This document shows, piece by piece, positions 10,168 through 15,555 of a stretch of 64,000 nucleotides of DNA. The stretch spans positions 1-64,000 of IMG/VR virus record IMGVR_UViG_3300030433_001358; one strand, 5' to 3'. Numbering within the stretch: position 1 is the first letter of the stretch; each line of letters opens with the position of its first letter. Source of the stretch: a virus. Taxonomy: Duplodnaviria > Caudoviricetes. The translations under genes were made by a program, and so were the position numbers. Under the pieces are notes generated by a model. That model searched no databases. It was given only the letters and a program-made list of their open reading frames with translations, and had not been told where the DNA came from.

Positions 10168-10197
10168 TTGACTTTTGAAGATTTGTCATGCTATAAT
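10168..10197 (+). promoter_or_regulatory. sigma70-type promoter, extended -10
   Basis: TTGACT, 18-nt spacer, TGcTATAAT. Confidence 0.65.
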
Positions 10198-10467: not shown

Positions 10468-10594
10468 ATAAGAATGAAAAATTATATAACTTTTCCTCCT
10501 AACGTGCTTTGCACGTCCTCCCAAGTCTACGAGATAGGGGTTCCTCCTCCTTCCCTCTATTTTGTAGCAGAGCACTTTAAACAGTGCTCTTTTT
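10468..10594 (+). ncRNA. candidate sRNA of about 127 nt with repeated CCUCCU (anti-SD) motifs
   Basis: Bounded by a promoter and a terminator, no convincing ORF, two internal hairpins, CCTCCT at 10495, 10543 and 10546. Confidence 0.45.
10569..10594 (+). terminator. intrinsic terminator
   Basis: AGAGCAC/GTGCTCT 7-bp stem followed by a T run. Confidence 0.65.
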
Positions 10595-10670: not shown

Positions 10671-11057
10671 ATGGCTGAACGTCCTGTATTTCCAAAAGGC
10701 AACACATTTGCCAAAGACAATAAAAACCCCGCTAAGAAACGTATCCGTAGGTCCAAGCTACGCAAGACACTAGAAAAGCTACATGATCTAGAGCCAAAGG
10801 CTATGGAGAATATTAAGAAAAGCGTAGATGGAGATACGATTGATAAAGAGATGTTGGCTTCCTCTAAGTGGGTGGTTAATAGCTTAGTGACAATGACTAA
10901 AGCAGCTTCTCAAGATGAAGCAGAGCTTAATGGTTTGCGTTGGAAAGCAGATGCTATGGAGAAGGAAGAAGAAGAGAAAGAAAAAGATTCTGAAGAAGAA
11001 ATCACTTCTGCTCGATTTGTTCCTTATCTGGTAGACGATAAAGCTAAGAAACTTTAA
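10671..11057 (+). CDS. putative terminase small subunit
   Basis: N-terminal FPKGN..A...NP motif common in TerS proteins; upstream of terL; start reassigned to ATG 10671. Confidence 0.55.
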   Translation: MAERPVFPKGNTFAKDNKNPAKKRIRRSKLRKTLEKLHDLEPKAMENIKKSVDGDTIDKEMLASSKWVVNSLVTMTKAASQDEAELNGLRWKADAMEKEEEEKEKDSEEEITSARFVPYLVDDKAKKL

Positions 11058-11065
11058 AGATTTGT

Positions 11066-11251
11066 TATTGGTATCCGTAAGAGCAGTTAGCAGAGCTATC
11101 CGGTGTATTGGGCTTCTGCTTGTGGACGGATTGTTGGCACCACAACATTGAAAGCGGAAGAGAGGCTTTAAGCTGATTCTCTATTTTGGGAACCTATCTT
11201 CGTCAAGGGATGGAGTGGAGCTAACCGAAAGTTGCGACTTTCATATCAATA
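11066..11251 (+). ncRNA. candidate multi-branched structured RNA, about 186 nt
   Basis: Closing stem TATTGGTA/TATCAATA; arms TCCGT/ACGGA, TGTTG/CAACA, TGAAAG/CTTTCA. Confidence 0.45.
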
Positions 11252-11318
11252 CATTTAATTGAATTAGATTATTTCAGTACGATCATACTGTACCATCGCT
11301 TTGCAAGTAGGTACACAG

Positions 11319-11402
11319 GATAGACAACTTTATACGACTGATGAGCCAGTGAGATTCTGGTGAAACTGCCTAGTGCAGTCTCGTAGCCTCCTAGTGTCTA
11401 TC
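11319..11402 (+). ncRNA. type I hammerhead ribozyme
   Basis: Complete core: stem I TACGA/TCGTA, CTGATGA (11338-44), stem II GCCAG/CTGGT, GAAA (11362-65), stem III ACTGC/GCAGT, GUC cleavage triplet (11378-80); distal stem I GATAGACA/TGTCTATC. Confidence 0.9.
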
Positions 11403-11647
11403 TAGGTTTGGAGGGTGAGCAAAGCACTAACATAACATATCGTTCTTTAAAAGGTATGTAAAAGAATCAAGCTACGGCTTGGTGTCTTCGTAATTTTGCC
11501 TAGATTCCGAAGCAAGAGGAGAGGGGAGAGATTTTGCTTTCCCACGCCTTATCGCATGGTAGAGTGGCGATGGGGCAAGAATTGTGGTTTAGTAACCAAC
11601 CAAGGTTTAATAGCCAACCCCAACAATAATTTCTAATAGGGGATGAT

Positions 11648-12490
11648 ATGTCGATAATCAGCATACCAAGTAATACATCATATTCAAATCTAAACACACT
11701 ATCCGGTTATCCTGTTGGTAGTGAGTTTATCCTTACTAATAACACATCATCCCCTTTATTCATTATCAGCTCCAGTGTACAACCTTCTCCAGAGGTGTTT
11801 GAGTATCCTGTCAGATCAGGACAAACAGTGATTATTGAAGGTGGTGCTAATCCTTATTGGATTAAAGGTAATACTGGTCCTGTAGTGATTCAGGATGCTA
11901 CGTCTAGTGTCTCTCCTTATTCTATTATAGACCTCCCTGACTATATGTATACAAGTTCTGAACAAGGTTTCAGACGTATGCGTGTTGATGTTGGACAGAC
12001 AGGGTTCTTTGAAGCTAGGGAGTTCCGTACTGTACGGAAAGTTTCAGTTACAGCAGGAACACCTCTGGTATTTAAGTTTGTCTCTAATGTAGATTTCATT
12101 CTATTTGAACAATCCTTGAATTGCAGTGCTGGTGATATTGAGTATTATGCTTGGCGTAGTACACAAGGTACAGAAGGTGGTACATTTACTCCCATCCCTG
12201 TTCAACATATCGCAAAGAATATTAGTGCTACTTATAGAGATTATGGTGGAGACAGGTATCAGTCTCAAGTCTCTATTTCCAGTGGGGGTACATTCACTCC
12301 TACAGACCCTCTTCTTTATGTAGATTACGACAGAGCTAAAACGTCTGGTGCAACAGCTCAACGATCTAGTGTTTCTGGTGGTGATGATACAGTGAGGTTC
12401 TTGGCTGCTGGAACATATTATCTTATTCTTACATCCTTAGATGGTACAAGCGTTGGTAGGTTTGCTATTGCTTGGGAAGAACGTCCATAA
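11648..12490 (+). CDS. hypothetical protein, possibly virion-associated
   Basis: 280-aa Ser/Thr/Gly-rich ORF upstream of the packaging genes. Confidence 0.7.
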   Translation: MSIISIPSNTSYSNLNTLSGYPVGSEFILTNNTSSPLFIISSSVQPSPEVFEYPVRSGQTVIIEGGANPYWIKGNTGPVVIQDATSSVSPYSIIDLPDYMYTSSEQGFRRMRVDVGQTGFFEAREFRTVRKVSVTAGTPLVFKFVSNVDFILFEQSLNCSAGDIEYYAWRSTQGTEGGTFTPIPVQHIAKNISATYRDYGGDRYQSQVSISSGGTFTPTDPLLYVDYDRAKTSGATAQRSSVSGGDDTVRFLAAGTYYLILTSLDGTSVGRFAIAWEERP

Positions 12491-12644: not shown

Positions 12645-13559
12645 ATGCAAGAAGAAAATAAACCAAGAGGTTTTGTAGACTATACGGGTTTTAAGTCTGG
12701 TAAAGTCACAGTGCTGAGTTTTCACAGTTGGCATGTACAACCTTCTGGACAGCGTAAGTCAAAATGGTTGTGCTCTTGTGAATGCGGTAACGAATTTGTC
12801 GCAATGGGTAGTAATCTCAGGAAGGAAGGCCACACAACGTCTTGTGGTTGTGAGGTGAGAAAGGTTCTTGCCAGACACAGAGAAAGAGTAGCTTCTGGTG
12901 AGTGGATTCCTGAGAAGCTGAACGGTAAGCGTTATGGTCGTCTAACAGTTGTTGGGTTTGAACGGTGGGAACGGATTGCAGAAGATCAGCAAGTTTCTGT
13001 CTGGAAATGCACTTGTGAATGTGGGAATGAGCACATAACTCGCCGGAACAACCTTGGTGAACATTCAAGCTGCGGTTGTTGGTTTAGGGAAAAGATTTCA
13101 GCATCCTCTACAAAACATGGGATGTATGGTACACCAACACATAAATCTTGGACTAAGATGAAGGAACGGTGTTACTTATCTACTTACGAAGAAAAGGATT
13201 ACTATCAAGACAGAGGAATTACTGTTTGTGATCGTTGGTTGGAATCCTTTGAAAACTTCTTAGAAGATATGGGTGAGCGTCCAGAAGGGACGAGTTTGGA
13301 TAGGATTAACCCCAATCTTGGGTACTATAAAGAAAATTGTCGTTGGGCTGACCTGACAACACAGTCTTACAACAGGCGCATGAATACAAACAATACATCA
13401 GGTCGTACAGGTGTCTTTCAATTACGCAACGGTAATTGGCAAGCAATCATAGGTTACTATAAAGAGCGGATTGTTTTAGCATACGACGTGTCTTTTGAGG
13501 AGGCTGTCAAAGCTAGAGAAGACGCAGAACTTAAATATTATGGATGGAATAAGGAATGA
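12645..13559 (+). CDS. free-standing HNH homing endonuclease with AP2-like C-terminus
   Basis: Two W.C.CECG repeats, SLDRINPNLGYYKENCRW HNH motif, C-terminal AP2-like domain. Confidence 0.85.
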   Translation: MQEENKPRGFVDYTGFKSGKVTVLSFHSWHVQPSGQRKSKWLCSCECGNEFVAMGSNLRKEGHTTSCGCEVRKVLARHRERVASGEWIPEKLNGKRYGRLTVVGFERWERIAEDQQVSVWKCTCECGNEHITRRNNLGEHSSCGCWFREKISASSTKHGMYGTPTHKSWTKMKERCYLSTYEEKDYYQDRGITVCDRWLESFENFLEDMGERPEGTSLDRINPNLGYYKENCRWADLTTQSYNRRMNTNNTSGRTGVFQLRNGNWQAIIGYYKERIVLAYDVSFEEAVKAREDAELKYYGWNKE

Positions 13560-13651
13560 ATGAACCCGAGGTAATCGGACCTTCCTCGTCCAAGCAGCAG
13601 TTAATGTTATGTCAAGATGCTGATACTGCGATCCTTGGTGGGGCAATGGGT
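13556..13651 (+). CDS. terL: terminase large subunit, exon 1
   Basis: MNEPEVIGPSSSKQQLMLCQDADTAILGGAMG, joining in frame to SGKS to form Walker A. Confidence 0.85.
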
Positions 13652-13887
13652 TAGTTAGCCGAGGCCCATTTAAAACCGTGTGAATTCAGGGAACATCCTA
13701 ACGGGACGATCCTGAGCCAAGCCCAATATACTTGGGAAGGTGCAACGACTATCCTCTCGGGGAGTACACTCAAGTGAGTGGAAGCGCACGGCACAATTAT
13801 TTGTGATGATATAGTCTAATCTCCCAGTAATGGTGAGCTGCTATTTGATAGCGGGTAAGAATTAACGACTCTTACTGAATATTACTG
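13652..13887 (+). mobile_element. group I intron (IA2-like), ORF-less, 236 nt
   Basis: P1 ATGGGT/GCCCAT with U-G at the 5' splice site; AATTCAGGGAA, ATCCTGAGCCAAGC; P3 CCGTG/CACGG; P7 GACTA/TAGTC; terminal G13887. Confidence 0.9.
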
Positions 13888-14208
13888 TCCGGCAAAAGTT
13901 TCATCTCATTGCTTTACCCATTAAAGTTTGCAGATGACCCCCATTTTCGTGGGGTCATCTTTCGTAAGACAACAGGCGAGATTACAGCCCAAGGTGGCTT
14001 GTGGGAAAACGCTTGTGAAATTTACACTAAGATTTATGGTAATGCTGATGAGCTAAGAAAGCAGGGTAAGAAAGGTGGTGTTAAGATTCATATTAAGGAT
14101 TTAAAAATCACCTTCCCTGCTGGTGGTTCTGTTAAGTTTTCTTTCCTAGAATCATCTAAAGATTTGTTAAAGCATCAAGGTGCTGCTTATACATTCGTGT
14201 TGTTCGAT
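13888..14208 (+). CDS. terL: terminase large subunit, exon 2
   Basis: 107 codons, SGKSFISLLYPLKF...YTFVLFD, ending at the Walker B Asp. Confidence 0.85.
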
Positions 14209-14466
14209 AAAATTTGTCGCCTTGTGTAGTGATGCACATTGAATAACCTCTCTAATTCAGGGGAACTCTCTATCTACAGAGACAATCCTGAGCGAAGCCT
14301 AGAAATAGGAACGTGCAACGACCAGTCGAAAGACGTAAGTTCAAGTGAACTGAAATGGGAGGGGACTTAGTTAATAAGTTCGTGATATGGTCTGAACTTC
14401 TATAGTGATATAGAGATGCAGGTAAGGCTGCTGGTTAAACTTAACGAGTTTAATTGAACGGAATTG
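14209..14466 (+). mobile_element. group I intron (IA2-like), ORF-less, 258 nt
   Basis: P1 CGAT/GTCG with U-G; AATTCAGGGGAA, AATCCTGAGCGAAGC; P3 CCTCTC/GGGAGG; P7 GACCA/TGGTC; terminal G14466. Confidence 0.9.
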
Positions 14467-15555
14467 GAAGCAACACACTTCAGCCGGGAAATGGTTGAAT
14501 ACCTAATTAAGCGTATGCGCTCTGCCCGAGCAAAGCACCAGAAACAGATGGTCCTAACGTGTAACCCCGACCCTGATTGGGAGTGTTTGGAGTGGATCAA
14601 ACCTTATCTCACAGAAGATGGCACACCTAACGAAGAGATGGATGGTAAACTTCGTTATTATGTCGTAGACAATGGTGAATACGTATGGGCCGATAGTAGG
14701 GAAGAACTTGAAGCTATTTATGGTACAGGTACAGACTCTGGTATTCGTAGTTTTACGTTTGTCAGTGCAAACTGTATGGATAACGTCCCACTCATGCGAG
14801 CAGACCCCACATACCTGTCAAACCTGAAAGCTCAACCTTATGTGGACGTTCAGCGCTATCTTTATGGGAACTGGTTTGTAAGGCCATCTGGGGCGTCTAT
14901 GATACGCAGAGAGTGGTTTAAAGAGTGTGATCAAGAACCCCCTTGGACTGAGATTGTAAAGACTGTTAGAGCTTTTGACTTTGCTTTTAAAAAGAAAACA
15001 GATCAATACCCTAACCCTGACTACACAGTTTCTGTAAAGATGAGTAAGTTGAGAGACGGAAGTTACTTTATTCATGACATCAGAAGGACACGAATTCTTC
15101 CGGGTGAGTGGATGACCTTTATCCTTGAATCTGCTATGGAAGATGGTAGTGGGGTTGATATTATTCTCCCACTAGACCCTCAGACAAGATATAGCAATTC
15201 TTTTATTGCAAAGGATTTGTCATCTAAAGGGTTTTATGTAAGGCAGTTTAAGGCTGTTGGTAAGAAGGAAGACAGGTTCAAACCTTTCGCTTCTATTGTT
15301 ATGAACGGCGGCATGAGTATCTTACGTAATTGTGGGACCGACTATGAAAATGGTATCTCCAATGATCTAAACTTCTTTTATAAAGAGCTTGAATCCTATG
15401 ATGGGAGTAGGAGTAGTGGCACCCGTCATGACGACCTCTGTGACGCCTCAGCAGACGCATTTTCTGCTTGTGCGTCAGTAAGGAATATCCCAAGTTTCAT
15501 GGGTGGTCTACAAGCCTCCGATTCCGCATTAAAATCAACAAACCCTTTTAATTAA
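14467..15555 (+). CDS. terL: terminase large subunit, exon 3
   Basis: EATHF completes FVLFDE Walker B; LTCNP motif; nuclease residues FDFA, PDYT, HDDLCDA; spliced product 501 aa. Confidence 0.9.
   Translation, partial: EATHFSREMVEYLIKRMRSARAKHQKQMVLTCNPDPDWECLEWIKPYLTEDGTPNEEMDGKLRYYVVDNGEYVWADSREELEAIYGTGTDSGIRSFTFVSANCMDNVPLMRADPTYLSNLKAQPYVDVQRYLYGNWFVRPSGASMIRREWFKECDQEPPWTEIVKTVRAFDFAFKKKTDQYPNPDYTVSVKMSKLRDGSYFIHDIRRTRILPGEWMTFILESAMEDGSGVDIILPLDPQTRYSNSFIAKDLSSKGFYVRQFKAVGKKEDRFKPFASIVMNGGMSILRNCGTDYENGISNDLNFFYKELESYDGSRSSGTRHDDLCDASADAFSACASVRNIPSFMGGLQASDSALKSTNPFN

Follow-up and report, generated by a model that had tools for sequence, protein, structure and literature searches.

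The stretch between positions 11319 and 11402 of this phage DNA raises two questions: whether a real hammerhead ribozyme lies there, among genes for DNA packaging, and what its self-cleavage would do at such a site. Intergenic phage hammerheads have been established since 2011 (PMC3088659), and most genomic ribozymes were still called functional orphans in a 2019 review (PMC6765202). The window that we analysed covers the first 64 kb of an IMG/VR record of 83,875 bp, which has direct terminal repeats and is rated complete. A preliminary description of the window had placed a complete type I hammerhead between terS and the rest of the packaging operon. Here we follow the ribozyme from its anatomy to its family and its surroundings, and then weigh what it may do.

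Results

The motif has every element of a type I hammerhead

Every element of a hammerhead can be read from the sequence at 11333-11385 on the + strand, lying within an 8-bp distal helix. Both catalytic core boxes match the consensus exactly: CUGAUGA at 11338-11344 for C3-U4-G5-A6-N7-G8-A9, and GAAA at 11362-11365 for G12 to A15.1, with A11365 pairing to U11379 as the A15.1-U16.1 pair. Three helices of 5 bp each, all with standard pairs, meet at the core; stems II and III are closed by loops and stem I is open. The proximal part of stem I joins UACGA (11333-11337) to UCGUA (11381-11385). Stem II (11345-11361) joins GCCAG (11345-11349) to CUGGU (11357-11361) around loop II, UGAGAUU (11350-11356), and stem III (11365-11379) is made up of the A15.1-U16.1 pair and CUGC/GCAG (11365-11369 with 11375-11379), closed by the loop CUAGU. 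The cleavage triplet, which in hammerheads is N-U-H with H any base except G, is here GUC (G11378-U11379-C11380), and by the hammerhead consensus the predicted cleavage site lies after C17 (11380) and before U1.1 (11381).

Stem I continues beyond an internal loop whose strands are ACUUUA (11327-11332) and, from the sequence and the minimum-energy fold, GCCUCCUAG (11386-11394). The distal helix follows, its 5' strand GAUAGACA (11319-11326) being the exact complement of its 3' strand UGUCUAUC (11395-11402). The minimum-energy fold of 11315-11410 is the hammerhead three-way junction together with the distal helix, and leaves UUA (11330-11332) unpaired. The fold-energy z-score of the same stretch is only -0.58 against shuffles, so folding energy alone is no proof of a hammerhead. 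The 3' product has an alternative hairpin at 11390-11406, CCUAG (11390-11394) with CUAGG (11402-11406), which is mutually exclusive with the distal helix. The first 32 nt 3' of stem I fold to -7.6 kcal/mol, with a z-score of only -0.91, which is not significant. All the coordinates in the preliminary description, those of the core, the stems, the 8-bp distal helix and the alternative hairpin included, proved correct when the sequence was read again, and the two positions that it proposed for inactive controls, G11340 (G5) and G11362 (G12), had been assigned correctly.

The sole flaw of the motif is the pair that closes stem II. At 10.1-11.1 the window has a G11345.U11361 wobble in place of the Watson-Crick G10.1-C11.1. 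This is the most conserved pair after 15.1-16.1, and active natural hammerheads are known with even U.U there (PMC3088659). The wobble is thus a deviation, not a disqualifier of the hammerhead class.

A type I descriptor run over both strands of the window found exactly one site. As a control for chance we simulated 300 Markov 64-kb windows of the same dinucleotide composition. A loose descriptor (stems of 3, 3 and 4 bp) matched 0.02 times per simulated window, while a strict 5/5/5-bp descriptor, which the window site satisfies, matched in none of the 300. Given that about 250,000 windows had been scanned, descriptor statistics are not enough by themselves, and it is the comparative evidence that is decisive for a genuine hammerhead.

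A widespread subfamily shares loop II and covaries

We searched with a pattern consisting only of the core boxes and loop II UGAGAUU, taken from the window. In IMG/VR it led to one locus (L019), in which all three stems differ from those of the window and yet are complementary. Allowing slack in the length of stem II, the pattern was found in at least 119 metagenome stretches and 24 prokaryotic genome stretches, more than 140 places in total. Among the matches listed, 113 of 151 fit the type I descriptor, with 90 non-redundant.

Covariation was measured on an alignment of 76 non-redundant members among the matches listed, with the window left out. In this alignment 98% of cells pair, and 12 of the 15 pairs have changes on both sides. 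No shuffle attained the observed pairing or the covariation score, and when the partners were slid by 1-3 columns pairing fell to 23-42%. As the descriptor demands stems I and III, their pairing is partly selected; stem II is not demanded; 98.7% of its cells pair, and four of its five pairs show double changes (76 members).

The covariance model built from this alignment without the window, R1, matched the window site along the whole of the model (1-70), with all 15 pairs standard and a score of 62.8 bits (E 3.3e-16); this score is to be read knowing that the R1 seeds were fished with a window-derived pattern and that some 20 matched bases are therefore shared by construction. The score lies inside the range of the members (41-67 bits), and the window site is the sole R1 match in the whole 83,875-bp genome.

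Several features lie outside the search pattern. Stem I is exactly 5 bp long in 65 of 90 listed members, and C17 of the cleavage triplet is present in 80 of 90. Of the two bases just 5' of stem I, the one at -6 is A in 88 of the 90 and the one at -7 is A or U in 85; the window has U-A. Among the 22 listed members that have no stop codon there, 20 still have the A at -6, which shows it to be structural and not a by-product of coding. Since the bases at -6 and -7, the GUC triplet and the 5-bp stem I were no part of the pattern, the agreement of the window with the family counts in favour of a hammerhead. The wobble is also found in the family: 4 of the 90 listed non-redundant members, from unrelated lineages, have U at 11.1.

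Judged by sequence, the window motif is a member of a widespread phage and environmental subfamily with 5-bp stems I and II, the loop UGAGAUU and an unpaired W-A. It shares with the other members loop II, both 5-bp stems, the W-A, a purine at +1 and GUC. It differs in having U instead of C at 11.1, in lacking an abutting ORF and in its 8-bp distal helix, whereas members usually have no distal stem I. This helix is the longest among the 86 listed family members tested, and its length is reached by 0.5% of flank shuffles (p ~0.005). The preliminary description had likened the internal loop of stem I to the geometry of natural hammerheads, and the likeness holds: an unpaired stretch of stem I lies where natural hammerheads touch loop II. 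Within it, UUA 11330-11332 matches the family-wide W-A. These bases are likely to be a candidate docking site for loop II. We found no published name for the UGAGAUU-loop subfamily.

Anatomy, family and R1 score together bear out the type I hammerhead as complete and as lying on the coding strand of the packaging region. The motif is genuine; among ribozymes of a known kind it is well formed but unremarkable, and we regard it as very probably real and selected.

Rfam models do not capture the subfamily

A search with Rfam models had been proposed as a check on the ribozyme, and it failed. At gathering score Rfam reports no hammerhead in the whole window, only two group I introns. RF00163 (Hammerhead_1, gathering score 34 bits) gave nothing at E<=10 in either the whole genome or the 121-nt stretch searched, and RF03152 (RAGATH-1-hammerhead, gathering score 56.3 bits) had no match in the window at E<=10. 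The only Rfam match at E<=10 in the 121-nt stretch was a mis-permuted Hammerhead_3, at 12.3 bits.

We ran Rfam at E<=1 on 20 loci with descriptor-valid members of the subfamily, and all 20 fell below every hammerhead gathering score. Their best sub-threshold matches were 28-35 bits for RF03152, against 56.3, and 23-28 bits for Hammerhead_3, against 48.5. As the family members also lie below gathering score, 20 out of 20, the missing Rfam match reflects the coverage of the models and not a defect of the motif. This exposes a gap in Rfam 15, where no model captures an abundant subfamily with the loop UGAGAUU.

The ribozyme lies midway in an ORF-free gap upstream of terL

All ORFs of note between 7241 and 17054 are on the + strand. 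Upstream of the ribozyme is a terS-like ORF (10671-11057, +), 128 aa long from the ATG at 10671, which ends 275 nt before stem I. Eight related loci keep it upstream of terL, each in a complete form of 128-136 aa. Pfam, PHROG, tblastn against the phage collection and a PDB sequence profile gave no match to it. AlphaFold models it as a two-helix hairpin (pLDDT 69), for which Foldseek gave no match at E<=0.001. The putative label terS is drawn only from size and synteny upstream of terL. Of the position first given for the ribozyme, between terS and the packaging operon, the packaging-region location therefore stands, and the identity of terS found no backing in Pfam, PHROG, the phage collection, PDB or fold comparison. 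We also considered an interrupted terS and rejected it: relatives have complete terS-like proteins, to which no sequence beyond the gap could be aligned.

The ribozyme is midway along an ORF-free gap of 590 nt (11058-11647, +). None of the small ORFs in this gap is longer than 46 aa, none is plausible, and there is no ORF remnant 5' of the ribozyme. A tRNA scan of the window found none. No promoter-like or terminator-like site was found on the + strand inside the gap, and no terminator-like site between 10590 and 12023. The neighbours being on the same strand and no terminator-like site following the terS-like ORF, the ribozyme is probably co-transcribed with them as packaging-gene RNA. About 80 nt upstream of the ATG at 10671 there is a terminator-like hairpin with a T run (10569-10590), and further upstream, at 10168 and 10433, are promoter-like sites close to consensus.

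Downstream of the gap the order of genes is the 280-aa ORF, HNH, an intron-split terL and a Mu-type portal gene, all +. The downstream genes had been described as the rest of the packaging operon. This is right in that terL and the portal gene follow, and wrong for the next gene, which is not terL but encodes the 280-aa protein (11648-12490, +), of unassigned function, with matches to phrog_13935 and phrog_4770 and homologues in Pseudomonas, Ralstonia and Vibrio phages. The HNH endonuclease ORF (12645-13559, +; 304 aa; phrog_374, E 1e-78) ends where exon 1 of terL begins. In relatives, the two halves of this ORF have their matches at different places. terL is interrupted at 13623-13837 and 14199-14415 by group I introns (Rfam RF00028; 79.4 and 76.4 bits); by tblastn with the intact TerL of relatives, exon 1 falls at about 13547-13651, and exons 2 and 3 at 13888-14211 and 14467-15552. 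The second intron is common to two relatives (L009 and L010), and a third (L007) has a 5'-cut intron match before exon 2.

Both flanks of the ribozyme fold better than shuffled sequence, which is suggestive only. The 3' product, 11381-11647, does so against 199 of 200 shuffles (z -2.62), and the stretch 11060-11260 has a fold z-score of -1.95. In the surrounding 1 kb (10900-11900) Rfam at E<=10 gave only two snoRNA matches at chance level. The ribosome-binding site of the 280-aa gene seems to be sequestered by a small hairpin at about 11610-11647. This hairpin is formed by CCCC...GGGG in the window and by UUCC...GGAA in two relatives (L003 and L008), which we counted as one compensatory change.

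Related phages lack the ribozyme

Relatives were collected through terL exon 3 (16 phages, L003-L018) and through the 280-aa ORF (L002), giving 17 loci. No hammerhead was found in any of the 17 by regular expression, descriptor, Rfam or model R1, so the check on conservation in related phages that had been suggested came out negative and the ribozyme is not needed by the phage group. The sequence of the gap is not conserved either. Blastn of its 590 nt against 50,697 phage records gave no match, and no similarity to it was seen in L002-L018. In the gaps of relatives, L002, L003 and L008 included, the only shared RNA structure was the ribosome-binding-site hairpin of the 280-aa gene. The exact 29-nt core had no match in IMG/VR.

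In Pseudomonas phage Bitten (L176, PV037721.1, 67404-71330), the homologue of the 280-aa gene comes immediately after 17 tRNA genes. The position of this tRNA array is that of the ribozyme-bearing ORF-free gap in the window.

Members of the subfamily usually follow closely on genes

A same-strand ORF of at least 60 aa ends within 20 nt of stem I in 57 of 79 listed members, at a median distance of 0, and 34 of 77 listed members have a downstream ORF that begins no more than 60 nt away. The stop codon overlaps positions -8 to -5 in 67 of 89 listed members (for example L036:357-416 and L062:856-907). The window copy has no stop codon at -8 to -5, its nearest ORF of at least 60 aa ending 275 nt upstream. 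The genes concerned are diverse: the upstream ORFs of listed members form 34 clusters among 57, and their flanking proteins include an anti-restriction protein, ATPases, an integrase and baseplate proteins, most being of unassigned function.

At the IMG/VR locus L019, two subfamily hammerheads (L019:8216-8287, 66.9 bits, and L019:8538-8618, 59.3 bits) bracket a single ORF of 88 aa. The second of them stands directly before a hairpin and five U, which resembles a terminator. Such a pair around an ORF is the arrangement described for prophages (PMC3088659), where it was read as long phage transcripts being processed into gene-length RNAs (Perreault et al. 2011, PMC3088659). The closeness of members to same-strand ORFs and the variety of their flanking genes also agree with this published view (PMC3088659; PMC6765202). 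Processing into gene-length transcripts was still listed as a suggestion needing work in a later review (Weinberg, Weinberg and Hammann 2019, PMC6765202).

Discussion

The window copy takes its place among several known kinds of hammerhead. With the type I hammerheads of bacteria, phages and prophages (PMC3088659; RF00163, clan CL00010) it has in common the core, GUC and a three-helix junction open at stem I, and also an intergenic position between co-directional phage genes and an unpaired stretch of stem I opposite loop II. It differs from them in scoring below RF00163, in the G.U at 10.1-11.1, in being single in its genome rather than one of a cluster flanking genes, and in lying about 270 nt from both neighbours. 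Like the RAGATH-1 hammerhead (RF03152) it is a phage-associated type I ribozyme with a 5-bp stem I. RF03152, in contrast, has a minimal stem II and a conserved upstream hairpin, and with no match to it in the window at E<=10, the window motif is not a RAGATH-1 hammerhead. The extended type I ribozyme of the Schistosoma kind (PDB 2GOZ, via PMC3088659) is alike by published description in having a stem I interrupted by an internal loop and a loop II free for contact, but its loop and bulge sequences are different and its context is that of eukaryotic satellites.

Starting from the observed anatomy, family membership and family covariation, we infer transcription across the site, catalysis and an effect on expression. 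The ribozyme would be co-transcribed with the terS-like gene on the packaging-gene RNA. Its folding would be aided by the distal helix, isolating it within a long untranslated RNA, and by loop II docking on the unpaired UUA. The RNA would then cut itself between C11380 and U11381, giving the upstream RNA with the terS-like cistron a 2',3'-cyclic phosphate end, and the downstream RNA, with the 280-aa ORF, HNH, the intron-containing terL and the portal gene, a 5'-OH and a structured leader of 267 nt. The two halves might thereafter differ in their rates of decay or translation.

It seems probable that a genuine hammerhead which cuts the packaging-gene transcript into halves of different fate is the whole explanation. 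Against it stand the failure to reach any Rfam threshold, the rare G.U pair, the absence from 17 relatives and a placement atypical for the family, some 270 nt from either gene and abutting no stop codon. For the role itself, intercistronic processing, we are more tentative and put our confidence slightly under even. The 13 bp of stem I could hold both products together, and religation could be favoured.

The pattern of occurrence would also suit a ribozyme that recombination brought in, alone or together with a small gene cassette, and that persists in a tolerant non-coding gap, where it may still cleave but serves no selected role. The hammerhead is absent from the 17 related loci, the sequence of the gap is not conserved in relatives, and members are scattered beside unrelated genes, as the 34 clusters among 57 upstream ORFs of listed members show; the stop codon that usually abuts the ribozyme (67 of 89 listed members) is missing, no remnant of a preceding ORF is left, and the closing pair is the rarer G.U. 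Such an orphan would nevertheless have had to keep its core, all 15 pairs and the W-A intact, and the perfect 8-bp distal helix that is specific to this copy (p ~0.005) is hard to explain without selection for folding. We think this history unlikely. That the stretch was never selected as a hammerhead, and resembles one by chance, is extremely improbable. The missing Rfam match, a fold-energy z-score of only -0.58 and the scan of about 250,000 windows, in which rare chance motifs are to be expected somewhere, would all agree with it. However, the strict descriptor was never matched in 300 simulated windows and the loose one only 0.02 times per window, the exact 7-nt loop II and the W-A are common to a covarying family, and the 8-bp distal helix comes in addition. 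A rough product of the odds is about 1e-8 per window, which stays well below 1 over some 250,000 windows.

Folding of the flanks bears on a further possibility, that the cut serves to release or define a structured non-coding RNA, either at about 11060-11260 or in the 267-nt leader, instead of uncoupling cistrons. Two fold z-scores point this way, -1.95 for 11060-11260 and -2.62 for the 3' product at 11381-11647, which outdoes 199 of 200 shuffles, and so do the 17 tRNA genes of phage Bitten at the equivalent place. Yet these z-scores are modest, 10900-11900 contains no tRNA and no Rfam family at E<=10 except the two chance-level snoRNAs, and the gap has no sequence or structure conserved in relatives bar the small hairpin at the ribosome-binding site. 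RNA maturation as the purpose of the cut is therefore distinctly unlikely.

Cleavage of the packaging-gene transcript could take a more elaborate form, in which the distal helix and the competing 3' hairpin (11390-11406) make up a switch: the helix would fold the ribozyme within a long untranslated RNA, and after the cut the hairpin would release the products and cap the 5'-OH leader of 267 nt. The capped leader may then control the stability or translation of the message for the 280-aa protein, HNH, terL and portal. We rate such a switch as quite improbable; if it were true, the ribozyme would determine how much small terminase the phage has relative to large terminase.

Phage hammerheads are already catalogued, and as a further member the window copy adds little alone. 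It is the only ribozyme that R1 found in a complete 84-kb genome, at a defined site in the packaging region, and relatives are without it. A single copy at a defined place that relatives lack makes a clean natural test case for comparing ribozyme-dead with wild-type phage, if a host is found. As a by-product, R1 gives a usable model of a subfamily not caught by Rfam.

The subfamily offers a lead of its own. The overlap of stop codons with the ribozymes hints that the end of translation and the folding of the ribozyme may be coupled, or simply that genes are tightly packed. In a family-level variant of the cleavage proposed here, terminating ribosomes may gate cleavage, as the near-universal overlap of the 5' edge with the stop codon would allow. 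Stop-codon abutment is thus a testable lead on the coupling of translation to cleavage.

A hairpin directly 3' of stem I was also considered as a feature of the family as a whole and rejected; it belongs to a subgroup only, 20 of 87 listed members having z < -2. In a marine subgroup (L038, L053, L066, L072, L074, L076 and L093) the hairpin, seen in the first 17 nt, begins one base after stem I, and its stems covary: GCUAGC/GCUAGC, GCUUGC/GCGAGC, GCUAUC/GAUAGC and GUUAGC/GCUAAC. This hairpin may stack on stem I, which is 5 bp long, in much the way that the distal helix of the window would.

Ribozyme-associated RNAs cluster, and a sub-threshold RAGATH-13 match (51.8 bits against 80) at L033:601-695 on the - strand, near a family hammerhead, fits this pattern. 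In another member a tRNA gene (L034:507-591) lies 58 nt upstream of the hammerhead at L034:650-707.
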